A stretch of 64,000 nucleotides of DNA, taken from positions 330,397 to 394,396 of the forward strand of contig DHPR01000033.1 in the NCBI GenBank assembly GCA_002410925.1, given 5' to 3'. The notes below the pieces were generated by a model that was not told the origin of the DNA, did no database searches, and saw only the letters and a program-made list of their open reading frames with translations. This document shows, piece after piece, positions 34,501 through 49,446 of this stretch. The position numbers and the translations under genes were made by a program. The first letter of the stretch is position 1, and the number at the start of each line of letters is the position of its first letter. The stretch comes from a bacterium UBP13_UBA5359. Its GTDB lineage: Bacteria > UBP13 > UBA5359.

Positions 34501-34665
34501 ATGATTATGGATATAAACTGGCTTGATATTATTGAGCTTTACCTTCTTATTTGCTTCACTTATCTCTATTTTTACCAGAAGAAGCGAGTGTATAATTTGG
34601 AGAAACACGTCGACGCTCTGCAAGCGCAAATTATCGCCATGGAGAACATTGATGAGAATTCATAA
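34501..34665 (+). CDS. Small single-TM protein (54 aa), absent from the ORF track
   Basis: MIMDINWLDIIELYLLICFTYLYFYQKKRVYNLEKHVDALQAQIIAMENIDENS; GGAGG 8 nt upstream; 3' end overlaps the tadE start. Confidence 0.65.
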   Translation: MIMDINWLDIIELYLLICFTYLYFYQKKRVYNLEKHVDALQAQIIAMENIDENS

Positions 34666-35050
34666 AGAGAATAAAGGACAATCCGTAATAGAGCTTGCCT
34701 TTCTCCTGCCCTTACTCTTGCTGTTGCTGATAGGCGTGTTTCAATTCACGCTGGTTCTGAAAACTTATATCTCCCTTTCGCTGGGATCTCGCGAAGGGGC
34801 ACGCGCCGGAGCGGTGGGCCGAACCAACACCGATATTGTTGCCGTTGTAAAGAAGCGGCTGCCTGGCTTTAATACCAGCAACCTCACCATTGCGATCACT
34901 CCCTCCAATGAAAGCTCACGCCGTGTCGGAGATTATATTACCGTTCGTATTGATTATGCGCAGGATCTCATCATGCCCTTTATAAGCTTTGTACTGCCTG
35001 ATCCACTCCCTATAAGCTCAACAACCGTCATGAGAATAGAAACACTCTGA
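34652..35050 (+). CDS. TadE-family pseudopilin
   Basis: KGQSVIELAFLLPLLLLLLIG prepilin-like G/xxxxE motif, SREGARAG, terminal MRIE. Confidence 0.85.
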   Translation: MRIHKENKGQSVIELAFLLPLLLLLLIGVFQFTLVLKTYISLSLGSREGARAGAVGRTNTDIVAVVKKRLPGFNTSNLTIAITPSNESSRRVGDYITVRIDYAQDLIMPFISFVLPDPLPISSTTVMRIETL

Positions 35051-35248: not shown

Positions 35249-36946
35249 TTACTGAGCAGGCACTGTCTCGGATATATTGGCATTGCACCAGCCGTCACCG
35301 CATTCAAGCTGAAGAGTTTTAGTCGTAGCATCGCAAATCTGGGATGGTCCGAAGTATTGAATCGGACCGGGAAAAACATAAGCATCTTCCAGCAGCCATT
35401 TATCTTTTACCTGAACAAAAGCCTTGAAAACATCACCATTAACATCCACCAAGGCCTTCTTAATAACGGGTTTCATCTTGCCCTTGCGCAATTCCATGGT
35501 AAGCATGGAGGCTACCGGCACACCGCCCATAACCCATTCTTCAACAGGCTTTGCTAAATTGGTAGCGGATACTGTATACCCGGTCAGTCCTGCTCTCAGC
35601 AACAGTGCCGCCGTATATCCCAGCGTATAAGTGTAATCGGCATCAAAGTTGGAAGGAGCGACACAGCGTCCTTCATAACCGAAGAAGTGATTCAATGCCG
35701 CAAATTTTCCTTTGAACTCTCCTGTTGCCTGCATAAGCCGTATTCTATCGGTTACCAAATCTATCAGAAGTTTCTCAGTCTCTATCTGTGAAAGCGTAAG
35801 ATTACCATGCTTATCACGTCTCAACAACACCTGTTGAATATCGTCGGGAAGAGAACCATATACTTTGGCGGAAGCAGGGGTTAACCTGGTATCGATATGC
35901 TGCCTCCTATCCGATGGATCGGTAAGGGTTTTAAGATAGCTTTCATCAGTATCCAATATTTTTCCCAGCTCAGCAATAAGCCCTTTCATATCGGCCAGGA
36001 ACTCCAGTAACCCTTCGGGGATAAGAACTATGCCGTAATTCTTACCAACCTCCGCCCTTTTGCAGATACCGGTCACTATCTGATCTACCACATCGGAAAG
36101 AGTCCATTCCGAGGCTTCAACCTCTTCAGAGATTATGGCTATATTAGGATGTGTCTGAAGAGCCACTTCTAATGTTATATGGCTGGCAGCACGCCCCATA
36201 AGACGAATGAAATGCCAATATTTACAGGCAGACATGGCATCACGACAGATATTACCTACTAATTCAGCAAAGGTCTTGGATGCAGTATCGAATCCAAAAG
36301 AAGTTTCTATCTGCTCGTTTTTCATATCGCCATCAATTGTTTTGGGAACACCGATCACTCGTATATCATAGTTATTGGCCGTAAAATACTCAGCCATAAG
36401 AGCAGCATTAGTATTGGAATCATCTCCGCCGATGATGACCAGAGCCTTGACACCAAGATTTTCAAGATTATTACGGCATGCTTCCAGCTCCTCGATCTTT
36501 TCGATTTTATCGCGGCCGCTGCCGATTATATCAAAGCCGCCGGTGTTTCTATATGCAGCAACTAATTCGGGTGTAAGCTCCTTATATTTGCCTTTTACTA
36601 TTCCGGCCGGTCCTCCCAGAAAGCCTATGAGGCGGCTCTTCTCATTGGCAGCTTTAAGTGCATCGAGAAGACCTGCAATGACATTATGCCCGCCCGGGGC
36701 CTGCCCTCCGGAAAGCACAACTCCTACTGATATAGGTTCACACGATAGAGCGCCTTCTCCAACAACAAATCTGGCCAGCGGTTTTCCAAAGGATTCAGGA
36801 AACTGCTTGCGTATTTCCTCTACCGATGCCATATCAGCAACCACATCCTCAAATACCAGCATAAACTTGCCGTCTTTCAGAAGCTTCGGCAGCTTAGGTA
36901 TATATTCCGACCGTGCCGCCTGAAGCACAGATAGTTTACTGTTCAT
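35249..36946 (-). CDS. pfp: Pyrophosphate-dependent phosphofructokinase (long clade)
   Basis: SGGQAPGGHNV, GGDDSNT, PKTIDGD, MGRAASH, FGYEGRC. Confidence 0.94.
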   Translation of the reverse strand: MNSKLSVLQAARSEYIPKLPKLLKDGKFMLVFEDVVADMASVEEIRKQFPESFGKPLARFVVGEGALSCEPISVGVVLSGGQAPGGHNVIAGLLDALKAANEKSRLIGFLGGPAGIVKGKYKELTPELVAAYRNTGGFDIIGSGRDKIEKIEELEACRNNLENLGVKALVIIGGDDSNTNAALMAEYFTANNYDIRVIGVPKTIDGDMKNEQIETSFGFDTASKTFAELVGNICRDAMSACKYWHFIRLMGRAASHITLEVALQTHPNIAIISEEVEASEWTLSDVVDQIVTGICKRAEVGKNYGIVLIPEGLLEFLADMKGLIAELGKILDTDESYLKTLTDPSDRRQHIDTRLTPASAKVYGSLPDDIQQVLLRRDKHGNLTLSQIETEKLLIDLVTDRIRLMQATGEFKGKFAALNHFFGYEGRCVAPSNFDADYTYTLGYTAALLLRAGLTGYTVSATNLAKPVEEWVMGGVPVASMLTMELRKGKMKPVIKKALVDVNGDVFKAFVQVKDKWLLEDAYVFPGPIQYFGPSQICDATTKTLQLECGDGWCNANISETVPAQ

Positions 36947-37231
36947 ATTACAAATACCCTCCCCCAAAATTACCCAGGAAGACAGAAGACAGAATTAAGA
37001 ACAATCCAACACATTAAATGAATATTGCCCATTCGCTCATCTCAATTTTCGAATATGCCTTTATTCTATACCATGTCCCTGCAATTATTCCTGTGTATTG
37101 TTGCTTTTGACACAATTGATATTATCTACCATTCAAAGGACAATTTCAAGAGTTGAAGCAGCAAGCCGCTCTTTAAATATTGAAGCATTGCTTTGAATTA
37201 TCTCAAGCATACCATACATGTAATAATAGAT

Positions 37232-39320
37232 TTACTCGTTTGGGAATCTGATAGCTTCCGTTTCTGAGCTATCTGAATGCGCTACTCTGTATAGAACATC
37301 TATCATCTCTTCAATTCGGTAAGGCTTGTTTATTACGCCGCTGAAACCGCATTGCTCATATTCAGCTAATACGGGATCGTTGGAATAGCCGCTGGATACA
37401 ATAATTTTTGCTTTCGGATCCAGCGCTTTAAGCTGCTCGGCAGCCTCTTTTCCTCCCATGCCACCCGGAATGGTCAAATCCATAATGACTACATCAAATG
37501 CGGAGTCTGAATTCAAAGCAGCCTCGTATGCTTTTATAGCCTGGCTACCATCTTCGGCATATCCTACTTCCCAGCCCAAATATTCCAGGATTCTTCCTAC
37601 CACGCTCCGTACAGCCTCTTCATCGTCCATCACCAAAACTTTACCCGTATCCTGAGCTATAATCTCAGCCGCTTTATCTGCTGCCTTTATCTCTCTTTGT
37701 GAGGCGGGCAGATATATATGAAAGGTCGTTCCCTTGCCATGCTCGGATTCAACAGTGACAAACCCATCATGTTTCTTTACGATGGAATATACTATAGCCA
37801 ACCCCAAACCGCTACCGCTTTTTTTAGTAGTAAAATAAGGATCGAATATGCGTTGCAGATGCTCCTGCGGCATGCCGACGCCGCTATCTGAGATAGATAT
37901 TTTTATATATTTCCCTTCGGCGATAGCCCCATCGATGCAACTGGGTTCAATAGATATATTTGTCGCAGCTATTCTGATGACGCCTCCTTCCGGCATTGCC
38001 TGATCAGCATTGATCACTAGATTGCTTATAACTTGACTAATCTGCCCTTCATCCGCCTCTATCGGCCAGAGTCCCTCAGCCATATCGTAATTACAGCTGA
38101 CATTAGAACCTCTTAACGCAAAATCGGCAGAATCAGTAATAATCTCCTTTACAGATGCCGTACTCTTTATGGGAGTGCCCCCTTTGGAGAAAGTCAACAA
38201 CTGCTGTGTCAATTCCTTGGCTCTAATAATGGCTTTCTCTGCTTCGAAAAGCTTTGCATACAGCCCTGTGCCAACCCTTACCTCTCTTCTAGCCAATGAG
38301 ATGTTGCCGAGAACAGCCATCAATATATTATTGAAATCGTGCGCTATCCCCCCGGCCAGAATCCCCAGAGATTCTAATTTTCTGGCCTTTACCAATTCCT
38401 CTTCCATTAATATCTTCTCCGTTATATCTCGAAAGACTATAACAACGCCGATAATAGCTCCATCCTTTCCATATACTGTAGTTCCGCTATCAGCTATCGT
38501 TCGTTTGCTTCCCTCTTTTGAGATAAGAACCGTCCGGCTTGTCAATTCGACTATGCACCCGGCCTTGAGTATTTTTTCAAAAATACCTCGACATCGCCGG
38601 CCTGTTTTGCCTGAAATGATATTAAATATTTCATCTATTTCTCTGCCCGCAGCATCTTCAAGCGACCACCCGGAGAGCTCTTCCGCCACCTTATTCATCG
38701 TAATTATTCGGCCTGTAGTATCAGCTGTTATCACAGCATCGGCACGAACATCTTCATAGCAAGCCTGTTCAACATTGCCGAAAAGCGCATTGTTAACCAG
38801 CTGAAGCCTCTGCAGAGCGATCTTGCTCTCCCGCTGTTCACGCCGGCGTGCTATGCCTCGCCTGACGATCTCCTCTGCATCAATANNNNNNNNNNNNNNN
38901 NNNNNNNNNNNNNNNNNNNNNNNNNNNNNNNNNNNNNNNNNNNNNNNNNNNNNNNNNNNNNNNNNNNCTGACGATCTCCTCTGCATCAATACGATCGAAA
39001 GGCTTTATCAAATAATCTATGGCCCCATACTTCAAGGCATCACGCGCCGTCTCCACTGAAGCATATGCGGTAACCATAGCCACCACTATATCGGGATTTT
39101 TGCTCTTTATCTTCTGCAATACGGTTATACCGTCATCCTCAGGCATGCGGATATCCAGAAGGATCAAATCTATCTTGTCACCCTCGTTATCCGTAATTGC
39201 CATCGCCTCTTTACCGCTGCCGGCCGTAATTACTCTGTAGCAGTCTTTGAAGAGCATCCGAAAGGCTTCCCTGGGACCGAATTCATCATCCACTACCAGA
39301 ATAGTCGCCCTGCTACTCAT
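37232..39320 (-). CDS. Hybrid histidine kinase REC-PAS-HisKA-HATPase-REC (spans the N gap)
   Basis: N-terminal REC (VVDDE, DIRMP, KPFD), PAS, AHDFNN H-box, DSGVG, FTTKKSGSGLGL, C-terminal REC. Collapsing the 24-nt overlap flanking the Ns gives one 660-aa frame. Confidence 0.8.
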
Positions 39321-40423
39321 GCTTTCCTCCCTGTTAATATCCACTTCAATGCCAGTGCTTAACCTGCTTGGAAACATTGGTTAAGTGCCGTTGTATATCC
39401 GGCAACCTTATATTTAAGGCAATTTTTACCAGCTCTGGATCAAATTGCGTGCCGGCGCCGTTATAAAGCTGCTGCCAAACCTGTTCAACCGGCATAGCTT
39501 TTCTATATGGACGATCAGATGCCATGGCATCTACGGCATCGGCGATAGACACAATCCGAGCATACAGAGCTATATTATCGTGCCTGGTGCCATACGGATA
39601 TCCGGTGCCGTCATATCTTTCATGGTGATATAGGACAGCAGGTATCATGTCCCGCAAAAAACCCACCGGCGCCAGAATCTCCGCACCTATTGCAGGATGC
39701 ATTTGCATCTCCTTCATCTCTTCCGGCAGCAAAGGCCCTTTTTTTCTTAATAACGCCTCATTTATACCTATTTTCCCAATATCATGCACCTGAGCAGCCT
39801 GACATAGAAGCTCCAGCTCTTTGCCGGCCATATTGCATGCCGTGCCCAAATACCTGGTAAGAGCTGCCACGCGCTCAGAATGGCCGGCCGTGTAATGATC
39901 CTTGGCATCGATAGCGGCTATCAGTGCTCGAACTGTACCGGCGAAGTGCTCTTTGACATCCTTTCCAGCCTTCTCTATCTCACCCTGCAGAGTACTATTT
40001 GTCAATTTAAGCCTCTGCAGAGCGATCTTGCTCTCCCGCTGTTCACGTCGGCGTGCTATGCCTCGTCTGACGATCTCCTCTGCATCAATACGATCGAAAG
40101 GCTTTATCAAATAATCTATGGCCCCATACTTCAAGGCATCACGCGCCGTCTCCACTGAAGCATATGCGGTAACCATAGCTACCTCTATATCGGGATTTCT
40201 GCTCTTTATCTCCTGCAATACGGTTATACCGTCATCCTCAGGCATGCGGATATCCAGAAGGATCAAATCTATCTTATCACCCTCGTTATCCATAACTGCC
40301 ATCGCCTCTTTGCCGCTGCCGACCGTAATTACTCTGTAGCAGTCTTTGAAGAGCATGCGAAAGGCTTCCCTGGGACCGAATTCATCATCCACTACCAGAA
40401 TAGTCGCCCTGCTACTCATGCTT
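38804..40423. repeat. ~415-bp near-identical direct repeat of a REC-coding segment (copies ~38804-39324 including the gap, and ~40009-40423)
   Basis: Both encode MSSRATILVVDDEFGPREAFRMLFKDCYRV...REQRESKIALQRL with scattered substitutions. Confidence 0.9.
39346..40419 (-). CDS. REC-HD-GYP c-di-GMP phosphodiesterase (RpfG-like architecture)
   Basis: REC domain, YTAGHSERV, HDIGKIG, HHERYDGTGYP, DAMASDRPYR. Confidence 0.92.
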   Translation of the reverse strand: MSSRATILVVDDEFGPREAFRMLFKDCYRVITVGSGKEAMAVMDNEGDKIDLILLDIRMPEDDGITVLQEIKSRNPDIEVAMVTAYASVETARDALKYGAIDYLIKPFDRIDAEEIVRRGIARRREQRESKIALQRLKLTNSTLQGEIEKAGKDVKEHFAGTVRALIAAIDAKDHYTAGHSERVAALTRYLGTACNMAGKELELLCQAAQVHDIGKIGINEALLRKKGPLLPEEMKEMQMHPAIGAEILAPVGFLRDMIPAVLYHHERYDGTGYPYGTRHDNIALYARIVSIADAVDAMASDRPYRKAMPVEQVWQQLYNGAGTQFDPELVKIALNIRLPDIQRHLTNVSKQVKHWH

Positions 40424-42397
40424 CTCACCCTGCTCAGCGTTTGCCGGCAATATCAGCTCAAAGCGCTCCCTATTATTTCCATTGATAACGAGTCTTCCGC
40501 CATGATCATGTATAATGCGCTGCGCTACAGCTAACCCTATATCGGCGCTCCTGCCGTTGCTGGTAAAGAAGAGGCGAAAAATATCATCACCGCTACCAAC
40601 TGATAAGGGATCACCGTCATCATCAACCGATATCTTCACATGCTCCTTATCGATATTCTCCACGCTCACACATATGGTACCGCCGCTTTTAGTAAAATTG
40701 ATGGAATTATGAATAACATATTCGATTGCTTTACCCATTTGCTCTCTATCCAGAGAAAGCAACACAGGGTTATCCTCTATATCAAGCTTGATATTGACTC
40801 CGGATTCAATGGCATGCTTCTTCAGCTTCTTTACTCTATCATCAAGCAAAGAGGATAAATCCATTGTTATAAAATTATAATCAGATTGTTTGGATAAGGC
40901 GATAAGCTTGCCGAGCAGATCATCAAGCCTGTGCACATCTTGGCAAACAGCCTTGTAAAAACCTGTATTAAAATCATCATCATTCTTCCGCTCCGGAAAG
41001 AGCTCGATAAACGTATTGACGGAGACCAACGGATTCCGCAATTCATGAGCAAAGAGAGCAACAACCTTGCTCAGCGTTTCCAGCCTCTGAGCATTCTCTC
41101 GCTCATGCGCCAGAGTCCTTTCCATACTGATATCATCAAATATCAAGACAGCCCCTCTTACAGAGGACAGTACATCTATCAGCTGAAAAGAGCTGATTTT
41201 AAGGTAGCATTCATGCTTGCCGGCCAGCTTAATCTCATATCCGTTTCTCTTTCTACCGGTAACAAGGCTTTCATGCAGCATATCACCCATGGGAGATGGA
41301 AGATTGCGTAGATCCTTTCCTATAACCCTGTCCCTGGGAATGTTAAGAATCTCGGCTGCACGATGATTAAAAATAGTGATGCGATCCGAAGCATCAATAG
41401 TAATAACACCGCTATGCATCCGTAGAAGTATCTCTTCTATGTACGATTTTTGATGCTGAAGTTCATTAAAAATATCTATATCCTCAAGAGCAACAGCTAT
41501 GTTGCTCGCCAATATATATAGCATTTCCAATTCTTCATTGCTGTATTGGCCACCCACAACCTTCTCTCCAAGGTTGATAACTCCCAGTACTCGTCCATTA
41601 CCGATGGACGGTATACTGACAACCGCCTGCAATAGTTCCATCTCCCGAACAACATCAAGCAGAAGAGGGTCGCCGGAATACTCCGCTTCGGTTTTACGCA
41701 GAACACGCCCCTGCTGTGTCAGCCAGAGGAGAAGCCCTCTATCGGAAGAAAGGCAGAGACTCTCAAGCATATCAGGATGTAGCCCTCGGCTGCTGGCTAT
41801 AATATATTCCCCTCCAGGCTCTGCCAGAATTATAGAAATACGGCTGACAGGATTAAGCTCGTCAATAGCCTCATGGATAAACTTAATCAATCTTTCGCGA
41901 TCGAATCCTGCTCCCAACCCCCTGGCAAACTTTCTTAAAACACTGTTAAACCGTGAATCTGAGTGAGCGACCTGATTATGCGGATATTCAATATAGCGTT
42001 TTTCATGCAGGTTGGTTTTCAGATGAGTTATCTCTCGCAACAGCTTGCTGCGCTCGATGGCCCGCGTAATAGAAAGATGCAACTCCGTGATATCAACAGG
42101 CACTCGCACTGTTTCATAGCACATATCCGTCACCAAATCCTCGCCTTCACGTTTTTTTGCAGGGAGAATAGCGATGACGGCACAGCCAGGCATATGCTTC
42201 TTCACCTGGCTGATAAGGCTGACATGCTCGCTGCGCCGGCCGGTGATATCCACTAAAGCAATATCTGCGTCTAAAGAGGCATGGCTTATTACCTCTTCCG
42301 GCGTACTTATGTGTACTGCTGTACATCCCTCTGGCAAGGCTCGCCGCATGGCAGCCAGCATATATTCTTCTTCACTGGCTAAAAAGACCGTATTCAT
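40412..42397 (-). CDS. Soluble pseudo-REC-GAF-PAS histidine kinase with degenerate ATP-binding boxes
   Basis: FAHELRNPL H-box; G1 box reads DDDGDP and G2 region reads FTSNGRSADIGL; no TM segments. Confidence 0.8.
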   Translation of the reverse strand: MNTVFLASEEEYMLAAMRRALPEGCTAVHISTPEEVISHASLDADIALVDITGRRSEHVSLISQVKKHMPGCAVIAILPAKKREGEDLVTDMCYETVRVPVDITELHLSITRAIERSKLLREITHLKTNLHEKRYIEYPHNQVAHSDSRFNSVLRKFARGLGAGFDRERLIKFIHEAIDELNPVSRISIILAEPGGEYIIASSRGLHPDMLESLCLSSDRGLLLWLTQQGRVLRKTEAEYSGDPLLLDVVREMELLQAVVSIPSIGNGRVLGVINLGEKVVGGQYSNEELEMLYILASNIAVALEDIDIFNELQHQKSYIEEILLRMHSGVITIDASDRITIFNHRAAEILNIPRDRVIGKDLRNLPSPMGDMLHESLVTGRKRNGYEIKLAGKHECYLKISSFQLIDVLSSVRGAVLIFDDISMERTLAHERENAQRLETLSKVVALFAHELRNPLVSVNTFIELFPERKNDDDFNTGFYKAVCQDVHRLDDLLGKLIALSKQSDYNFITMDLSSLLDDRVKKLKKHAIESGVNIKLDIEDNPVLLSLDREQMGKAIEYVIHNSINFTKSGGTICVSVENIDKEHVKISVDDDGDPLSVGSGDDIFRLFFTSNGRSADIGLAVAQRIIHDHGGRLVINGNNRERFELILPANAEQGEKHE

Positions 42398-42403
42398 TAA
42401 CTA

Positions 42404-44869
42404 CTATGCCTCTATCCCTATAGAAGGTACTTTAAATGCCGGTAAATCTATATTAAACATGGTAACCTCTTGATCTGACAAAAAGATATTCCCTCCGTGC
42501 TCACTGATAATTTTTCGACATATAGACAGCCCCAGGCCTGTCCCCCCCGGCTTGGTTGAGTAGAAAGGTGTAAAAACCTTCTGTTTTAATTCCGGAGAAA
42601 TCTTGTTGCCTGTATTGGCGATCATAATCCTGAACCACTTATTGCCATCCTTATCATAAGAAGCTATATCAATATTAAGGCTACCGCCATCAGGCATAGC
42701 CTCAATGCCATTAATAAGCAGATTAAGGAATAACTGCTTCATCTTTCCACCGTCGGCAAATACAAGAACGCCTCCCGGCGGATAATCTTTTTTTACCTCT
42801 ATCTGCCGCTCCTGTAACCTATTAGATAACAACAAAAGCATCTCGTCAAGAGGATCTTTAATATTAAGCGGCATCATCTCTGCTTGAGAGCGAGCAAAGC
42901 CAAGCAGCTGGGAAATCAGAATATCAATACGTTCAATCTCCTTGACAACCAGCTTTGAAAAGACCTCTCTAAACTCCTGATCATCGAATTTATCAGGCAG
43001 CAGCTGAGCAAAAGTTTTTATTGAAACCAGAGGATTCTTAATTTCATGTGCCAGGCCGGCTGCCAGCCCTCCGACGCATGCAAGCCTTTCTGCCTGATTA
43101 CGCTCCTCCTCAAGCGCTTTGATACGAGACAAATCACTGAATACAAGAATTACGCCCTCTATATCTTTTCGTATTCCTTTAAGAATGGTAGAGCTTACCA
43201 TCAAAGGAAGGCTCTCTTCATTCTGCGAAAGAGCAATCTCCAGATTGCTGCAGGTAACTCCTCTCTCCAGCGCATCGTCAACCTTCTCAGCTAGAACCGA
43301 GTTTATTTCATAAATATGGCGCCCTGTAAGATCATCCGTTTCCAACGCAAGTATACGAGCGGCAGCACGATTAAAGAGAACAGCCGCACCCTCCTTATCC
43401 ACGGTTATCACGCCGCTCTCCATGTTAGCTAATATGCTCTCGTTATAGTCACGAACACGGCGTACTTCCTCATACAATTGCGCGTTGTTTATGGCAGCTG
43501 CAGCCTGATTGGCCATAGCCATCAAAAGCCCCATATCTTCCATGGAATAAATATCCCCTGAAAGTTTCGGGCCAAGCACCATGACTGCGGAGAGATATCC
43601 ATCCAGGATAATTGGAACCGCTACGTCCACGCCTAACTTCGTCATTTCAGAGATTACACCCTCTATTCCCCGTTCAGAGGAGAGGCGTATAAGTTCCTCA
43701 CGCAGCATGACTTCTCTCTTTGAGGCAAGGTAGGCGGCAATTTGGCTGTCTCCGGAAAGCATCTCTCGAAGAGTGCCGGTTTCTTCCATAGGAGATCTGG
43801 CCAAGGCCATTCGGAAACCGCTATCTCTGCCGCTTTTTAAATAAAGATATACCTTTTCAGGATGCATAGTGCTATAGATTACATCGTAAATATAATCGGT
43901 CAGCTCCTCCAGACGCAACATGGATGTAAGCGAGCGGCTTGTTTCAAGCAATGTGCTGTTATAATCATATGCTTCCCTGTAAAAATACCTGTCAAATATG
44001 CTTTGCAGCCATACTCTTAGCGGCTGGAAACCGATAGCGACAATCAAAGCTATAAGAGACATGGTAGTAAGAGATGATAATCCTAACACGCCACGCATTA
44101 CTTTTTCACCATAAATTAGAAGAAAGATAAAGCTGGCAACGGCCAAGATGATGGAAAAAAAGTATACAAAGCTCTTTTTAATAACCAGACGGAGCTGCAA
44201 TAGCCTGTAGCGCACAATAGTATGAGTAATAAAAGCAAGCATTATGATACTGAAGGATGGTCCATATCCGGCGAAATACGAAGATTGGAATATCAATGGA
44301 AGAAGAAGATTAGTGTACGTGGTAATAAACAATGACACTGCTATTCCCAAAGTAAGGTACTGTATCTGCAGCCTCTCCACGCCTCTTGCCGTTTTATGTT
44401 TGGAATACAGATTTACAAGTGCCCAGGCAAAGCATATTGTAAAATAAACCGTATATAATGGAAGAAGTGGGCCCGGCCGATCCTGAACCCCCCAGGAATA
44501 TATATGTGCTCCGGCCATGATAGCCGGCGTAAAAGAGATGCCGCAGAAAATACAGCCCAAAACAAAAAATACTTTTATGTCGCTGGTAATCGCTAATTTT
44601 CTTCCCAAGGGAAAGACTCTTACGAACATAAGGCAGCTAACCGGAATCATGCCGGCGATAGCCAGAGCCATTCTCAACCATAGAAGAGCAGCGGCCTCGG
44701 ATTGAGCACTCTCTATAAAAAAGTTACTGAAAACCCAAGCGCTGACCAACAAAGCAAAGAGAGAGAAAAGGCGATTGACTGTTAACCGGGGATTCTTTGC
44801 CAGCACAAATATACTGAAAGCAGCATTGATGATTGCTGACAATAATAAAAGGATACACTTTATCTGCAT
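42404..44869 (-). CDS. Sensor histidine kinase, HisKA_7TM-like N-terminus plus GAF, PAS, HisKA, HATPase
   Basis: About 9 N-terminal TM helices (NPRLTVNRLFSL, AWVFSNF, IVRYRLL), AHEIKNPL, QLFLNLLINGIEAM, FYSTKPGGTGLGL. Confidence 0.88.
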   Translation of the reverse strand: MQIKCILLLLSAIINAAFSIFVLAKNPRLTVNRLFSLFALLVSAWVFSNFFIESAQSEAAALLWLRMALAIAGMIPVSCLMFVRVFPLGRKLAITSDIKVFFVLGCIFCGISFTPAIMAGAHIYSWGVQDRPGPLLPLYTVYFTICFAWALVNLYSKHKTARGVERLQIQYLTLGIAVSLFITTYTNLLLPLIFQSSYFAGYGPSFSIIMLAFITHTIVRYRLLQLRLVIKKSFVYFFSIILAVASFIFLLIYGEKVMRGVLGLSSLTTMSLIALIVAIGFQPLRVWLQSIFDRYFYREAYDYNSTLLETSRSLTSMLRLEELTDYIYDVIYSTMHPEKVYLYLKSGRDSGFRMALARSPMEETGTLREMLSGDSQIAAYLASKREVMLREELIRLSSERGIEGVISEMTKLGVDVAVPIILDGYLSAVMVLGPKLSGDIYSMEDMGLLMAMANQAAAAINNAQLYEEVRRVRDYNESILANMESGVITVDKEGAAVLFNRAAARILALETDDLTGRHIYEINSVLAEKVDDALERGVTCSNLEIALSQNEESLPLMVSSTILKGIRKDIEGVILVFSDLSRIKALEEERNQAERLACVGGLAAGLAHEIKNPLVSIKTFAQLLPDKFDDQEFREVFSKLVVKEIERIDILISQLLGFARSQAEMMPLNIKDPLDEMLLLLSNRLQERQIEVKKDYPPGGVLVFADGGKMKQLFLNLLINGIEAMPDGGSLNIDIASYDKDGNKWFRIMIANTGNKISPELKQKVFTPFYSTKPGGTGLGLSICRKIISEHGGNIFLSDQEVTMFNIDLPAFKVPSIGIEA

Positions 44870-46158
44870 TATCGGCAGCTCCGTTGTTTGCCATATTTTC
44901 CAAAGAGTAAGGCAGCATGGGTCCCACCTACGCTGGTGCCGTTCATCAGTGCATATCTGATCCGAACTTTTCTGGCGCCTTTTGTAACGTAATCAAGGTC
45001 ACAAAGAGGATCGGGAACCTCACAATTAATCGTTGGGGGTACTATGCCATGATATACGGATAATGCGGTGGAGGCAGCCTGCAGTGCACCTCCGGCAGCC
45101 AATGCCTGCCCTATCATTGAACGAATTGAATTGACAGGAATAGAGTACGCCCGTTCTCCCAGTATATACTTTATGGCATTGGTATCGGCGATATCACCGG
45201 CAGGAAATCCCGTGCCATGGGCATGAACATAATCGATATCATCTCCGGTTAGTTGCGCATGGGAAAGCACCTCGGCAAAGGCTTCCGCAATAGCTGCGCC
45301 TTCAGGGTCGGTATCCACCATATCCGATGCCTCTCCACAGGAAGCATATCCCAAAACTTCGGCATATATACGTGCGCCACGCATAAGAGCATGGTCCAAC
45401 TCTTCAAGGATAAGAGCAGCCCCTCCTTCGCTAAGAACCGCACCATCTCTTCCTGCGGCAAAAGGCCGTGATGCCTTGGCAGGATCGCCTTGAAAGGTGG
45501 TCAGAATACGGCTGGCGCACATAATTGAGAAGCCAAAAGCGGTTATCGGCGCTTCAGACGCACCGCAAACGACCATATCGGCACTATTATTTGTAATGGC
45601 TCTATAGCCCCAACCTACAGCTTCCAATCCTGTGCAACAACCCGCAGAGATTGAGCTGGCAGGCCCTTTCAATCCCAGTTCGATGCAGACATACGCCGTA
45701 GATGAATGAGAAGTAAGCTCTGTCCAGGCTGTCGGGCTTATGCCGCTGACACCTCGCTTTGAGAAAGCGGCATGTTCCCTATCGGCCATATATCCTGCCA
45801 TTGTGCTGCCAAAACATGCGCCGTAACGATATGAGTCCTTTTCCCGGAGAGGATAATCAGCATCACTGATCGCCATCTTGGCAGCAGCTACTGCAAACTG
45901 TGAAAAACGCTTCAGACGTCGAGTCTTCTTTGCCTCCATATAAGCCTTAGGATCAAAATCATTCACCTGGCCAGCTATCTTTATTGGATATGCCTTAGCA
46001 TCTAAACACGTAAGCGGTCCTATTCCGGATCGCCCCGCTTTGATTGCTTCCCAAAAGAGAGCCTTATTTGAGCCGTTTGGCGAAATAGCGCCTATGCCCG
46101 TAATTACAACACGGCGCGCGCGTGCCCTTCTCTCATACATGACCGATTGCCTTTTCAT
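44869..46158 (-). CDS. Stand-alone beta-ketoacyl synthase (FabF-like) with atypical active site
   Basis: RVVITGIG, SAGCCTG, SRPFAAGRDG, SEGG, HAHGTG, RSMIGQALAAGG, PPTIN. Confidence 0.88.
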   Translation of the reverse strand: MKRQSVMYERRARARRVVITGIGAISPNGSNKALFWEAIKAGRSGIGPLTCLDAKAYPIKIAGQVNDFDPKAYMEAKKTRRLKRFSQFAVAAAKMAISDADYPLREKDSYRYGACFGSTMAGYMADREHAAFSKRGVSGISPTAWTELTSHSSTAYVCIELGLKGPASSISAGCCTGLEAVGWGYRAITNNSADMVVCGASEAPITAFGFSIMCASRILTTFQGDPAKASRPFAAGRDGAVLSEGGAALILEELDHALMRGARIYAEVLGYASCGEASDMVDTDPEGAAIAEAFAEVLSHAQLTGDDIDYVHAHGTGFPAGDIADTNAIKYILGERAYSIPVNSIRSMIGQALAAGGALQAASTALSVYHGIVPPTINCEVPDPLCDLDYVTKGARKVRIRYALMNGTSVGGTHAALLFGKYGKQRSCR

Positions 46159-47779
46159 TGATTTTTTCTACCAAATCAGCAATAGCATCCTTTTCACCAA
46201 CATAGAACATACGCTTTATCTCTGAGGCGTATTTCGATGCTTCTATGTTCAATATGCGGCTGAGCAGCATAGATTCATCCGTCATATAAGTTGTCAGGTT
46301 GTTTCTCTCCAATTCAGCGACAAATTCTGCAGTTTCAGCCGTAAACGTCTTAAAATCCTTGCCGTCCACAGTGTATGGAAGCGGTTTCCAGAATTGTGGC
46401 GGATACATGGTCTTGATCTTATAGTCCATATTATCTTCGGCGTAATTCTTACCCAGATGAATATTATACTTCTCCGGATTTCTAGCCCAGCGGCTATGAG
46501 GATATATACCGGGAAAGTAGACCAGAACAGAGTCCGGGCGTACACGCAACAGCGTACGAATAGTCTCCATGCGGGTTATTTCATTATCGCCCGGGGCCGG
46601 ATATATAATACTGACAACGGTAATTATTCCCGCTTCTTTACTCTTCAGCAATACTGCTTCTATATCTTCCACAGTAGTATGCTTCTCCAGCGAGCCATCC
46701 AAGATAGTTTGACTGCAGGATTCTACACCGAAAAAGACGGCAGTTAACCCGGCTTGGCGGAGAAGTGAAAAATCGGTATTACGCATTGTATTAATATGGC
46801 TGAATGAAGTAAACATTATTTTCAGCTCTCGGCGCAATATCTCTACGGCTACTTCCTCCATTAGCTTGCCGGGAGTGAATTGACCGCCAAATCGAAATAA
46901 TTTTACACCGGTCTTTTTATAAGCGCGCTCCACCTCATCTACTATCCTGACAGCGGATTTCTTACGCCATTTGTTATCATCGCGAGAGCTTTGCGGGCAA
47001 AAGGGGCAGGTATAGATACATCCTCTGCTCTCATCCAGCACCATTACTTTGATTTTGCTGTTGCCTTTCATGGCCGGATATACACTCTCATCATATACCG
47101 GATAGGGCAGATCATTCAGGTTTTGCGGCCGTTGAACAGGATTGCTTACAATCCTGCCCTTATCTTTGTAGATGATATTGGGAATATCCTTCAGGCTCGT
47201 ATTGCTTTCAACAAGCCGAAGCAAGGCTTCCTCTCCCTCATCGCAGACCAGAGCATCAAATATATCCGTCTTTTGCAGAATCATCTCTCTGAAGAGATAG
47301 ACATGCGGGCCGCCGCCATAAATCCGTATATGGGGATGATCACGCCTGATTATCTCTGCCATTAATATAGACCCATAAAAGCCATCTCCATTCCAGAGCT
47401 TGAATCCAATGAAATCAGGGCGTTCCCTGCTGGTAAAAGCGGAAAGCTCCTCTGCCATAGCCGCTACTTCTCTATTGTGAAGTGCTGACAATGTGCCATC
47501 CAGCCTTTTAAGCTGTGTAAATCTGTATAACCGGCAAAGCCGGTTCCAAAGGCCACCATGCTCATTATCCGCTAATGCGTCATATATGCTTTCAAGCCTA
47601 TCTTTATAAAAAGCAGGCGTCAATCTATCGATTATTTCAACAGTGCCGTAATCCAAAATGGTAACCTCATGACCTGCATTCAGCAATGAACCTGCTAAGC
47701 TGGCCAGGCCATTATCAGGCATAAGGCTGCTGGGAGTGTATGGATAACCGGCATAACTAACAAGAAACCCTTTAGCCAC
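46133..47779 (-). CDS. Cobalamin-binding radical SAM enzyme
   Basis: B12-binding pattern PDFIGF...GGGPH...DEGE, SRGCIYTCPFC (CxxxCxxC), FFGVES. Confidence 0.9.
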   Translation of the reverse strand: MAKGFLVSYAGYPYTPSSLMPDNGLASLAGSLLNAGHEVTILDYGTVEIIDRLTPAFYKDRLESIYDALADNEHGGLWNRLCRLYRFTQLKRLDGTLSALHNREVAAMAEELSAFTSRERPDFIGFKLWNGDGFYGSILMAEIIRRDHPHIRIYGGGPHVYLFREMILQKTDIFDALVCDEGEEALLRLVESNTSLKDIPNIIYKDKGRIVSNPVQRPQNLNDLPYPVYDESVYPAMKGNSKIKVMVLDESRGCIYTCPFCPQSSRDDNKWRKKSAVRIVDEVERAYKKTGVKLFRFGGQFTPGKLMEEVAVEILRRELKIMFTSFSHINTMRNTDFSLLRQAGLTAVFFGVESCSQTILDGSLEKHTTVEDIEAVLLKSKEAGIITVVSIIYPAPGDNEITRMETIRTLLRVRPDSVLVYFPGIYPHSRWARNPEKYNIHLGKNYAEDNMDYKIKTMYPPQFWKPLPYTVDGKDFKTFTAETAEFVAELERNNLTTYMTDESMLLSRILNIEASKYASEIKRMFYVGEKDAIADLVEKINEKAIGHV

Positions 47780-47914
47780 TGCTACACCGCCTTTTTAAGC
47801 TACTGCTAATTTATTCGATGATACAAAGTATTTGTCCTGCATCATTAATACGCGCTGTAATTATCCGACATATCGACATATCGCTATGCCGCCAATTGAT
47901 TGGCAAAATCAAAC

Positions 47915-47952
47915 AAAAAAGAACCGGAGCGTTATTAAATATAATGCCCCGG
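47915..47952 (-). terminator. Intrinsic terminator after tRNA-Val
   Basis: Minus strand CCGGGGCATTAT-ATTTA-ATAACGCTCCGG followed by TTCTTTTTT. Confidence 0.7.
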
Positions 47953-47967
47953 CTCCGTGCTTTAAAA

Positions 47968-48043
47968 TGGTGCGCCGTAGTGGAATTGAACCACTGGCCT
48001 CTTGCGTGTCAAGCAAGCGATCTAACCGCTGATCTAACGGCGC
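47968..48043 (-). tRNA. tRNA-Val(GAC)
   Basis: 76 nt; GCGCCGT/ACGGCGC acceptor stem, CTTGC-TTGACAC-GCAAG anticodon arm, GTTCAATT T-loop, encoded CCA. Confidence 0.93.
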
Positions 48044-48071
48044 ATATCTGATTTTCAATCGAAGATGCCCT

Positions 48072-48145
48072 TGGTCACATCGTGGAATTGAACCACTGGC
48101 CTCTTATGTACCAGGCAAGAGATCTAACCTCTGAGCTAACCGCCC
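48072..48145 (-). pseudogene. Decayed tRNA related to the adjacent tRNA-Val
   Basis: Starts GGGCGGTTAGCTCAG and shares a 24-nt variable/T-arm stretch with tRNA-Val. The acceptor stem cannot pair, the anticodon stem has a mismatch and the loop reads GGT. Confidence 0.75.
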
Positions 48146-48159
48146 TCAATATTTATGGC

Positions 48160-49446
48160 CTATGCCGTTTCCTTATGACTCTTTTTCGCCTTCATATCCC
48201 TGATATAGACAATTTCAGGGTCTAATCTTCTTTCCACTACCTCAGCAGTTACCTTACACTGTTTTATATCTTTCTGAGAGGGTATCTCATACATTATATT
48301 GAGCATAACCTCTTCCAGTATCATCCTCAAGCCCCTGGCGCCGGTACCACGCGCCATTGCCTGTGTTGCAATAGCCGCTACCGCTTCCCTGGTAAAGGTC
48401 AGCTCTACCTCATCAAGAGAGAAGAATTTCTGATACTGCTTAATAAGGGCGTTCCTGGGCTCCGTCAGTATCCGTATCAGATCATTTACATCAAGCTGAT
48501 CCAATGTGGCCACAACGGGCAACCGGCCGATAAACTCGGGTATAAGGCCGAATTTCAACAGATCATCCGGCATCACTTTTGCAAGAATACGCCCTATAGA
48601 ACGCTCTTTCTTGCCCTCTATCTGCGCTCTGAACCCGATAGTTTGATTGCTGATTCTGGAAGTGATCATATCTTCCAGACCGTTGAAAGCGCCTCCGCAA
48701 ATAAAGAGTATATTCTGCGTATTTATCTGCAGATACTCCTGATGCGGATGCTTTCGGCCTCCCTGGGGAGGCACGCTGGCAATCGTTCCTTCGAGTATTT
48801 TCAAAAGAGCCTGCTGCACACCTTCACCGGAAACATCACGCGTTATAGATGGATTATCAGCTTTCTTGGCAATCTTATCAATCTCATCTATATAAATAAT
48901 GCCGCGTTCGGCTTTTCGGATATCATGCTCGGCAGCCTGTATAAGCCGTAACAGTATATTTTCAACATCTTCTCCCACATAGCCGGCCTCTGTCAAGGAG
49001 GTTGCATCGACTATGCAAAAGGGCACATCAATTATCCTGGCCAGCGTCTGTGCCAAGAGGGTCTTACCGGATCCTGTTGGCCCTATAAGCAGGATGTTGC
49101 TTTTCTGCAGCTCAACATCATCAACCTTGGCATTAACGCTTATTCTTTTATAGTGATTATAAACCGCTACCGCCAAGACCTTCTTGGCATTGGCCTGCCC
49201 AACTACATATTGATTCAGTATATCATAGATCTCCCTGGGCTTCGGGATATCGATAATTTCCTCCTCCGGGCTCTCGCCGATATCCTTGCAAAGCTCTTCC
49301 TCTATGATCTCATTGCATAATCCTATACATTCATCACATATATATACGCCCGGACCGGCAACAAGCTTTTTAACCTGCTCTCTGCTTTTACCGCAAAAAG
49401 AGCATTTCAATTGCATCTCATCATCTCCATCGATTAGCCTGTGCAT
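48160..49446 (-). CDS. clpX: ATP-dependent Clp protease ATP-binding subunit
   Basis: CSFCGK...ICDEC zinc finger, [19 protein letters not shown] loop; exact start uncertain. Confidence 0.97.

Follow-up and report, generated by a model that had tools for sequence, protein, structure and literature searches.

A predicted operon linking a cobalamin-type radical SAM enzyme, a lone ketosynthase and a HisKA_7TM kinase: local copy of a widespread module and candidate lipid-signalling circuit

Genes of the operon

We analysed a 64,000-nucleotide stretch of the bacterium UBP13_UBA5359 (contig DHPR01000033.1; hereafter the window), in which a block at 37232-47779 had been singled out as a candidate operon for the synthesis and sensing of a signal. 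The list of open reading frames (ORFs) and their translations confirmed that six co-oriented ORFs lie on the minus strand of this block. In the order of transcription, they encode a cobalamin-type (class B) radical SAM enzyme of 548 amino acids (rSAM; 46133-47779), with Pfam B12-binding and Radical_SAM domains; a lone FabF-derived ketosynthase (KS; 44869-46158), matching the N and C domains of ketoacyl-synt; a kinase of 821 amino acids (HK1; 42404-44869), in which HisKA_7TM and two more hydrophobic helices precede a GAF-PAS-HisKA-HATPase series, as judged from Pfam and AlphaFold2; a soluble kinase of 661 amino acids (HK2; 40412-42397) with a degenerate REC-like domain ahead of GAF-PAS-HisKA-HATPase; a REC-HD-GYP response regulator of the cyclic di-GMP (c-di-GMP) phosphodiesterase type (39346-40428; probable start ATG 40419); and a hybrid kinase, REC-PAS-HisKA-HATPase-REC (gene 6; 37232-39320, ATG 39320), assigned by Pfam on both parts of a gene divided by a run of N.

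The junctions between these genes also proved to be as tight as the original prediction had described. The rSAM and KS frames overlap by 26 nucleotides (nt), the KS stop and the HK1 start have one base in common (TAATG), and the other three junctions are a gap of 6 nt, an overlap of 8 nt and a gap of 25 nt. The 8-nt overlap, between HK2 and the REC-HD-GYP gene, is counted from ATG 40419, and the 25-nt gap then leads to gene 6. If KS starts at its seventh codon, as in database entry P0121, the first overlap shrinks from 26 to 8 nt. Pfam backed every domain name given earlier to the six proteins and, as expected from that account, found no acyl carrier protein (ACP), reductase, dehydratase or exporter domain among them. 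Tight packing and domain content together make the six genes one predicted operon.

Ketosynthase and radical SAM enzyme

The KS possesses both thiolase-fold domains (PF00109, 138 bits; PF02801, 97 bits), and its best matches among solved structures are FabF enzymes (E 3e-97). It has the fold, the Cys and the first His in common with FabF, the β-ketoacyl-ACP synthase II (KAS II); unlike FabF, with its Cys-His-His triad, it has Cys-His-Gln (Asn in relatives), with Arg in place of Lys five residues before, and it lies outside the fab cluster with no adjoining ACP. The housekeeping plsX-fabH-fabD-fabG-acpP-fabF cluster of the window genome is located on contig C19, and the FabF encoded there is 35% identical to the operon KS. 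Since a normal fab cluster with its own FabF thus exists elsewhere in the genome, the operon KS is an extra paralogue. Its score of 408.3 falls short of the TIGR03150 equivalog cut-off of 493.75, and it passes only the broad subfamily NF005589 (391.7 against 387). On triad, equivalog score and location alike, the KS thus does not qualify as a bona fide FabF.

The altered triad is common to the relatives of this enzyme. The second catalytic His is lost in all 31 KSs of the module described below (Gln in 19, Asn in 11, Ser in 1), and 113 of the 120 nearest KS homologues in a large database have Cys-His-Gln. In a scan for the ACP serine motif, the carrier proteins detected all belonged to five housekeeping fab clusters, none being encoded in the module loci; one further match, in locus L076, is antisense within a region called as a kinase gene and was set aside. 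The absence of the motif from the module loci makes the lone KS a family trait. A KS profile search of 401 genomes matched 357 of them at E<=1e-110 and did not separate module KSs from housekeeping FabF, and was used only for choosing high-scoring loci to inspect.

The rSAM protein combines a B12-binding domain (PF02310, 47.6 bits against a cut-off of 32.1, residues 104-189) with a Radical_SAM domain (PF04055, 63 bits), and its CxxxCxxC motif (C254/C258/C261) is invariant in 15 of 15 aligned homologues. The nearest solved structures are 9ccb (a radical SAM protein), CysS, AprD4 and TokK, followed by TsrM and OxsB, with E values of 2e-23 for CysS, 1e-17 for TokK and 2e-9 for TsrM. The B12-binding domain and radical SAM core are those of the class B cobalamin methylases CysS, TokK and TsrM; unlike these, the operon enzyme bears about 100 additional conserved residues at its N-terminus and fits no curated family. 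It belongs to none of the characterised class B subfamilies, as it stays far under every NCBIfam cut-off, with best scores of 97 against 750 (ApyD), 93.6 against 360 and 92.9 against 481; the subfamilies thus missed include ApyD, the TIGR04072 lipid radical SAM enzymes, BchE, HpnJ/R and PhpK. An identity as a ladderane-type lipid radical SAM enzyme (TIGR04072) was considered and rejected, the 93.6 against 360 being its score.

The family itself is large, with at least 435 full-length homologues at E<=1e-30 in a database search, all under generic names. The labelled ones come mostly from metagenome-assembled genomes (MAGs) of Omnitrophota, Elusimicrobia, Chlamydiota, Armatimonadota and Aureabacteria, and a few are labelled DPANN archaea. 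In the protein Atlas, the corresponding cluster of 553 members is named "hypothetical protein" and is commonest in Omnitrophota. When the genome contigs were scanned with the single rSAM protein, only the locus of a congener (L001) and an unrelated partial match (L002) were found.

Sensor kinase and output proteins

HK1 scores 36.1 bits against HisKA_7TM (PF16927; cut-off 28.6), a seven-transmembrane (7TM) domain here fused to a HisKA/HATPase core. For residues 1-300, AlphaFold2 gave a model with a predicted local distance difference test (pLDDT) score of 88.7, composed of a seven-helix bundle, a hairpin at 118-132 and two further helices. A Foldseek search of the 7TM model against the PDB returned only eukaryotic G-protein-coupled receptor (GPCR) bundles, with TM-scores of 0.34-0.53 and E values of 9e-5 or weaker, and we read this resemblance between a model and solved folds as shared topology, not homology. 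In two passages of PMC5847659, HisKA_7TM is named as a sensor domain and no ligand is given.

By NCBIfam, HK1 and HK2 are both of the AtoS type, and the REC of the REC-HD-GYP protein is of the AtoC/NtrC type. These types fit one another as partners, and they also fit the sigma54 activators found in related loci. An identity of the kinase as PrsK of the PEP-CTERM system was rejected, since the kinase core alone matches (122 against 300).

HK2 follows HK1 in seven loci (L001, L015, L016, L025, L055, L070 and L084), and a second kinase follows HK1 in L112, L124 and L127. The N-terminal domain of HK2 aligns to REC domains and keeps the acceptor Asp, with partial loss of the acidic pair and of Thr/Lys; its orthologue in genome G037 still scores 24.5 bits against Response_reg. 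Because conserved residues other than the acceptor Asp have been lost, a relay through HK2 is only possible.

The REC-HD-GYP protein matches Response_reg (88.6 bits), HD_5 (103.9 bits) and HD (69.3 bits), and the HD and GYP motifs are seen in the translation. Gene 6 is interrupted in the window by a run of 82 N (38886-38967) and is intact in the congener (L001; 668 amino acids). Both flanks of the run contain an identical stretch of 24 nt; on the L001 orthologue they fall at positions 25-377 and 354-2007, and the two parts of the gene are 93% and 88% identical to it. Since the orthologue is intact and the flanks overlap on it by 24 nt, the run marks a scaffold join rather than a broken gene, and the REC modules of genes 5 and 6, being nearly identical, are the most likely cause of it. 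REC plus linker is 97% identical between the two genes over 353 nt in the window (38968-39320 and 40009-40419) and 99.5% identical over 424 nt in L001 (17356-18880). The modules of the two genes are more alike within each genome than the parts of gene 6 are between the genomes, which indicates gene conversion, that is, concerted evolution of tandem receivers. This pattern in the sequences suggests that both outputs, genes 5 and 6, receive their input from the same kinase.

Recurrence of the module

A scan of metagenomes with the rSAM alignment gave 80 loci, which together with L001 and the G037 locus (L015) made 82. A simple gene caller recovered the rSAM ORF in 77 of these, to which the following counts refer; L018, L059, L065, L087 and L088 were left out, although a KS and a 7TM domain are detectable by tblastn downstream in L018. 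The KS is present in 31 of the 77 loci and a kinase of one cluster in 34, HisKA_7TM being found in 40 of the 51 members of that cluster. A membrane methyltransferase of the ICMT/PEMT type accompanies rSAM in 19 loci, a sigma54 activator in 14, a REC-kinase in 14, and a FadL/TodX outer-membrane channel in 7, the last also in genomes G257 and G136.

The association of the enzymes with the kinase is clearest where both flanks can be inspected. Among the 26 loci in which rSAM has flanks of 4.5 kb or more in both directions, 14 carry the KS, and a 7TM-type kinase is present in all 14, compared with 1 of the 12 KS-less loci. Dereplication at 60% rSAM identity left 35 groups. Long flanks are available for 20 groups, of which nine have the KS, and the kinase occurs in nine of nine. 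Among the 401 reference genomes searched, 12 have the rSAM family, 10 of which are non-congeneric, and the rSAM-KS-7TM kinase trio occurs in five of those 10 (G037, G257, G146, G356 and G291). The original prediction would have been refuted had homologues of rSAM and KS never adjoined 7TM kinases; they do. Recurrence of this gene order in unrelated genomes and on many metagenome contigs shows that the arrangement goes beyond chance, and the operon is, as far as gene content and order tell, the local copy of a widespread module. From the same comparison, three proteins form the predicted core of this module: a FabF-derived KS whose triad is Cys-His-Gln/Asn and which lacks a dedicated ACP, an enzyme for methyl transfer, and a HisKA_7TM kinase.

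The c-di-GMP branch also recurs. In G136 and G117, a REC-HD-GYP gene comes after the two kinase genes; in G146, a REC-GAF-HD-GYP gene is located two genes past the kinase pair with a sigma54 response regulator between them; and in G148 a REC-HD-GYP regulator adjoins rSAM. The output is therefore not peculiar to the lineage of the window. REC-HD-GYP homologues 37-52% identical to that of the window are found in module loci L112, L117, L124 and L127.

Variants of the module and sigma54 promoters

Two main forms of the module were distinguished. Type A is window-like, with the order rSAM-KS-7TM kinase-second kinase. Type B cassettes encode their own sigma54-like factor, an HTH-cupin protein (HTH, helix-turn-helix), a sigma54 activator, the KS, three rSAM paralogues, an ICMT-type methyltransferase, a stand-alone 7TM protein, a 7TM kinase, a small HTH protein and a PilZ protein; they were seen in L029, L031, L050, L067 and relatives.

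The partner of the KS and kinase can be exchanged. The third congener, G002 (a fragmented genome, 87% complete), keeps the KS-HK1-HK2-HD-GYP-gene 6 order, and in place of rSAM it has a class I SAM methyltransferase of 240 amino acids and a dCache-HAMP kinase directly upstream of KS. In G117 (L127, 8608-17082), a KS of 531 amino acids that retains the second His is accompanied by an ICMT-type methyltransferase, a 7TM kinase and a second kinase, with no rSAM; the REC-HD-GYP protein of this locus is 52% identical to that of the window. The sequences thus suggest a methyl-transfer slot, filled by a cobalamin rSAM enzyme here, by a class I methyltransferase in the congener and by an ICMT-type enzyme in other lineages. 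Since three unrelated methyltransferase folds fill the same slot, we infer that the job of rSAM is methyl transfer, and judged from its sequence the enzyme is the likely methyl-transfer step of the pathway.

In seven of the 77 loci, rSAM is directly followed by a FeeM/LuxI-like N-acyl synthase, which never occurs together with the KS. This looks like a second undescribed enzyme pairing, and such a partner, recognised by its sequence, points to an acyl substrate for rSAM.

Two further observations concern the neighbours of rSAM. In the KS-less loci L019, L021, L023, L038, L040, L045 and L058, rSAM stands directly before or beside the FeeM/LuxI-like synthase, and loci of this kind are often preceded by a conserved Cys-rich protein of 180 amino acids with no Pfam match. 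In L068, L073, L085, L089 and L080, a conserved protein of about 250 amino acids, with an N-terminal CxxC...C and no Pfam match, always comes before rSAM.

Sigma54-type promoters were searched for with TGGCAY-N5-TTGC, at 9 or more matches out of 10, on both strands of 889 kb. The scan yielded 48 matches, of which 17 lie within 250 nt upstream of module genes: 8 before KS, 4 before FadL, 3 before the small HTH gene and 2 before REC-HTH_8, many of the loci being closely related. The matches before KS and FadL indicate that, in these relatives, the genes for the enzymes and the channel are probably under the control of the circuit itself.

Joint divergence of enzyme and sensor

If the enzymes make what the kinase senses, the methylating enzyme and the 7TM domain are expected to change together while the KS and the kinase core are conserved, and this is what was observed in two comparisons. 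Between G000 and G002, the identities are 89% for KS, 87% for the HK1 kinase core and 90% for clpX, with 68-86% for the HK2 domains and 78-90% for the HD-GYP protein. Identity falls sharply exactly at the HK1 start, to 52% in the 7TM domain, 57% in the linker and 59% in GAF, with 73% in PAS. By comparison, the control pair G000/G001 shows 84-98% identity in every part, the 7TM domain being at 91%.

A second, independent replacement of this kind was found between loci L025 and L055, where KS (92%) and the rest of HK1 (85%) are conserved, and rSAM and the HK1 7TM domain (residues 1-215) are only 49% and 35% identical, respectively. Identity within rSAM is 88-100% over the first 40 residues, breaks off sharply there and is 30-58% in the remainder, both alleles being intact; in windows of 40 amino acids, FadL from residue 81 onward is at 75-98% and HK2 at 62-100%. 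A chimeric assembly would not readily account for two hypervariable blocks with a conserved KS between them. Among the 26 pairs of loci with KS identity of at least 70%, L025/L055 is the single strong outlier, L047/L055 being partly so; in the other 25 pairs, co-divergence of enzyme and sensor is not clear. The combination of a variable synthase and sensor with a conserved core, the hallmark of specificity groups, is thus present in G000/G002 and in L025/L055.

Across 18 loci, a partial Mantel test gave r=0.29 for rSAM against 7TM given KS, a value reached by 4 of 2000 permutations. The corresponding comparison of rSAM with the kinase core gave r=0.14, reached by 297 of 2000, and indicated no link.

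Discussion

The original prediction held that the two enzymes make an acyl-derived molecule sensed by the 7TM kinase. In its favor, the enzymes recur beside 7TM kinases and co-vary with the 7TM domain; its likeness to the Rpf system turned out to be functional only. As a circuit, the operon might work as follows. The KS would condense an acyl chain supplied by the fatty-acid synthase and ACP of housekeeping metabolism, and rSAM would methylate the chain to give it a specific structure. The lipophilic product would then enter the membrane, either of the cell itself or of a neighbour, where the seven-helix bundle of HK1 would read it. HK1, with or via HK2, would phosphorylate the two near-identical REC modules, one of which would switch the HD-GYP phosphodiesterase and change c-di-GMP, and the other would feed the hybrid kinase relay. 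In relatives, the output is a sigma54 activator that apparently drives the sigma54 promoters of the KS operon and FadL, closing a feedback loop. We give about even chances to the central proposal, which extrapolates from gene content and co-variation, that a self-made methylated acyl product, with its structure set by the methylase, is read in the membrane by the 7TM domain, with c-di-GMP hydrolysis and a further relay as outputs. FadL in some loci and the FeeM/LuxI-like partners hint that the product is exchanged between cells.

Several points weigh against this proposal. Lacking the second His, the KS could be unable to condense at all, and nothing that would explain product release (a thioesterase, an exporter or a dedicated ACP) was seen in the module loci. 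The REC-like domain of HK2 is degenerate, which makes its role in the circuit doubtful. The rSAM family is not exclusive to the circuit, as it occurs without the KS in 11 of the 20 dereplicated long-flank groups, 9 of which also have no kinase. Only two mosaic events are available, one from a fragmented MAG (87% complete, 5% contamination), and recombination hot spots could yield such mosaics without any matching to a ligand. In the Mantel analysis, KS against 7TM given rSAM gave r=0.47, and the test is unreliable among related sequences. In the window operon itself, there is neither a DNA-binding regulator nor a sigma54 match of at least 9/10 upstream of the rSAM start; the sole 9/10 match on the operon strand (47548) lies inside the rSAM gene. 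Finally, the sigma54 feedback loop of the relatives suits lipid homeostasis equally well.

Homeostasis is indeed the core of a different explanation, in which rSAM and KS make a structural membrane lipid, for example a methyl-branched one, and the 7TM kinase senses the physical state of the membrane or an unrelated cue and adjusts expression or behaviour. Two-component control of envelope and membrane lipids has precedents in pmrCAB and DesK/DesR, and the sigma54-like sites before the KS operon and FadL, combined with the sigma54 activator of the cassettes, would form a loop suited to this task. The sensor part of HK1 is wholly embedded in the membrane in the AlphaFold2 model, the ICMT-type protein also matches PEMT, a phospholipid methyltransferase (E 2e-13), and FadL could bring in fatty acids for membranes. 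The PlsC-type acyltransferase downstream in four type A' loci would also fit, but it sits with cmk and ispH and may reflect housekeeping synteny only. There is, however, no reason why a sensor of the bulk state should be exchanged along with the methylating enzyme when KS and the kinase core are conserved, and the window operon encodes no transcription factor, its outputs being c-di-GMP hydrolysis and a relay. We consider lipid remodelling rather unlikely, though worth serious attention. If instead the protein partners themselves were coupled, with rSAM docking on or modifying the 7TM kinase or an associated membrane protein, the co-variation would reflect a protein interface. The joint divergence of rSAM and 7TM in two comparisons would be expected in this case, and some class B radical SAM enzymes methylate peptides or proteins, although the matches of rSAM to ApyD, to methylases of ribosomally synthesized and post-translationally modified peptides and to a methyl-coenzyme M reductase methylase are far under cut-off. 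The replacement of rSAM in G002 by a class I methyltransferase of unrelated fold, the pairing of the rSAM family with FeeM-like acyl synthases in loci devoid of a 7TM kinase, and the constant KS partner, which favors an acyl substrate, speak against such an interface and leave it with little probability.

Only slightly better placed, and improbable in our estimate, is the possibility that the cue comes from outside: FadL would import an exogenous hydrophobic compound, the 7TM kinase would detect it, and KS and rSAM would assimilate or modify it, in a Tod-like catabolic or scavenging regulon. Sigma54 activators are typical of hydrocarbon regulons, and the FadL/TodX channel of seven loci, G257 and G136 comes with sigma54-type promoters. 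The habitats are also compatible, as the sequencing runs that contain at least half of the sampled words of the stretch are four fermentation metagenomes (two of them possibly the source of this DNA), and landfill runs hold 0.29-0.42 of these words. On the other hand, the window genome yielded no FadL homologue with the query used, KAS-type enzymes are biosynthetic condensing enzymes, and genes for oxidation, CoA ligation or β-oxidation were not seen in the annotated cassettes. As for a chance adjacency of unrelated genes inserted beside a tRNA gene, the block does lie next to tRNA-Val with housekeeping genes around it; the same order with overlapping frames in many unrelated loci and genomes contradicts this explanation, which we regard as extremely improbable.

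Returning to the self-made acyl product, its closest functional counterpart is the Rpf system of Xanthomonas, in which RpfF, RpfC and RpfG, encoded together, link a fatty-acid-derived product (diffusible signal factor, DSF), a membrane sensor kinase and a REC-HD-GYP protein to c-di-GMP hydrolysis. The operon likewise pairs a presumed fatty-acid-derived product with a membrane kinase and an RpfG-type REC-HD-GYP protein. None of its six proteins, however, has the crotonase (ECH) domain of RpfF; HK1 is of the HisKA_7TM-GAF-PAS type without the REC or HPt domains of RpfC; a second kinase and a hybrid kinase are added; and a KS of the KAS II fold and a cobalamin rSAM serve as the enzymes. Because proteins of the RpfF and RpfC types are absent, this is not an Rpf system and the analogy is one of function.

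In the agr system of Staphylococcus and comQXP of Bacillus, both with peptide signals, the signal-making gene and the receptor sensor domain co-vary, and the kinase core and regulator are conserved. The module resembles them in that its enzyme and membrane sensor domain are hypervariable together around a conserved kinase core, and differs in its variable enzyme, an rSAM or methyltransferase whose substrate is presumably an acyl chain, and in the conserved KS between the variable blocks. A small hydrophobic acyl signal and a multi-pass kinase devoid of a large periplasmic domain are combined, as is proposed for the operon, in CqsA/CqsS (CAI-1) and in PhcB/PhcS (3-hydroxy fatty acid methyl esters), CqsA being a pyridoxal phosphate enzyme and PhcB a methyltransferase. 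PhcB is thus of the same general kind as the replacement of rSAM in G002, a likeness of description and not of compared sequences; unlike these systems, the operon has no CqsA homology, a 7TM domain of another family and different outputs. Cassettes of a synthase plus a sensor kinase are known as a kind, and the combination of KS, rSAM and 7TM kinase is apparently undescribed. In agreement with the novelty that had been claimed for it, we found no description in open full text, a search that excluded subscription journals and supplementary files.

The broadest version of the proposal, which we advance only tentatively and with less confidence than its central part, is a new and phylogenetically wide class of lipid autoinducers in uncultivated anaerobes. 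It would use a KS scaffold lacking the second His, a branch or ester "code" written by exchangeable methylases (cobalamin rSAM, class I or ICMT-type), and a GPCR-like seven-helix kinase as the reader, with the co-replaced alleles as specificity groups comparable to agr/com pherotypes and with a c-di-GMP read-out in this lineage. If true, bacterial lipid signalling would gain a new chemistry, the tailoring of a KS-built acyl chain by a cobalamin radical SAM enzyme, and a new receptor type, HisKA_7TM. The lineages bearing the module (Omnitrophota, Elusimicrobia, Chlamydiota-labelled MAGs and others) have hardly any studied signalling, and a testable role would be provided for a large family of "hypothetical radical SAM" proteins and for the Cys-His-Gln KS subfamily annotated as FabF. 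The two natural swaps of enzyme and sensor offer ready matched and mismatched pairs for experiments. Even if the circuit serves homeostasis, it would represent a new lipid-modification pathway with its own sensor.

Genomic surroundings

The window genome is 2.25 Mb in size and 98% complete; two congeners are among the genomes compared, other relatives being related only at the level of the same domain. The operon is bounded upstream by tRNA-Val(GAC) on the minus strand (47968-48043; ARAGORN, and 70.2 bits with the Rfam tRNA model). As had been noted for the block, it adjoins this tRNA gene among housekeeping genes, with tig-clpP-clpX upstream and pfk and thrS downstream. The leader or promoter region occupies 47780-47967 on the minus strand, between tRNA-Val and the rSAM start. 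Besides tRNA-Val and one sub-threshold match, no riboswitch or other Rfam element was found in 36800-48400, and a sigma-70 and terminator scan of the leader gave background level only. A hairpin followed by a T-run after tRNA-Val was read by eye and was not listed by the terminator scan. The proximal ~110 nt of the leader are conserved with L001 and L016.

Just upstream of tRNA-Val, a tRNA-like stretch (48065-48140, minus strand) has the same T-arm sequence as tRNA-Val and unpaired acceptor ends; it was called by neither ARAGORN nor the Rfam scan and may be a decayed tRNA copy. Between thrS and pfk, on the opposite strand, lies a gene for a TadE-like pilus assembly protein (34523-35050, plus strand).

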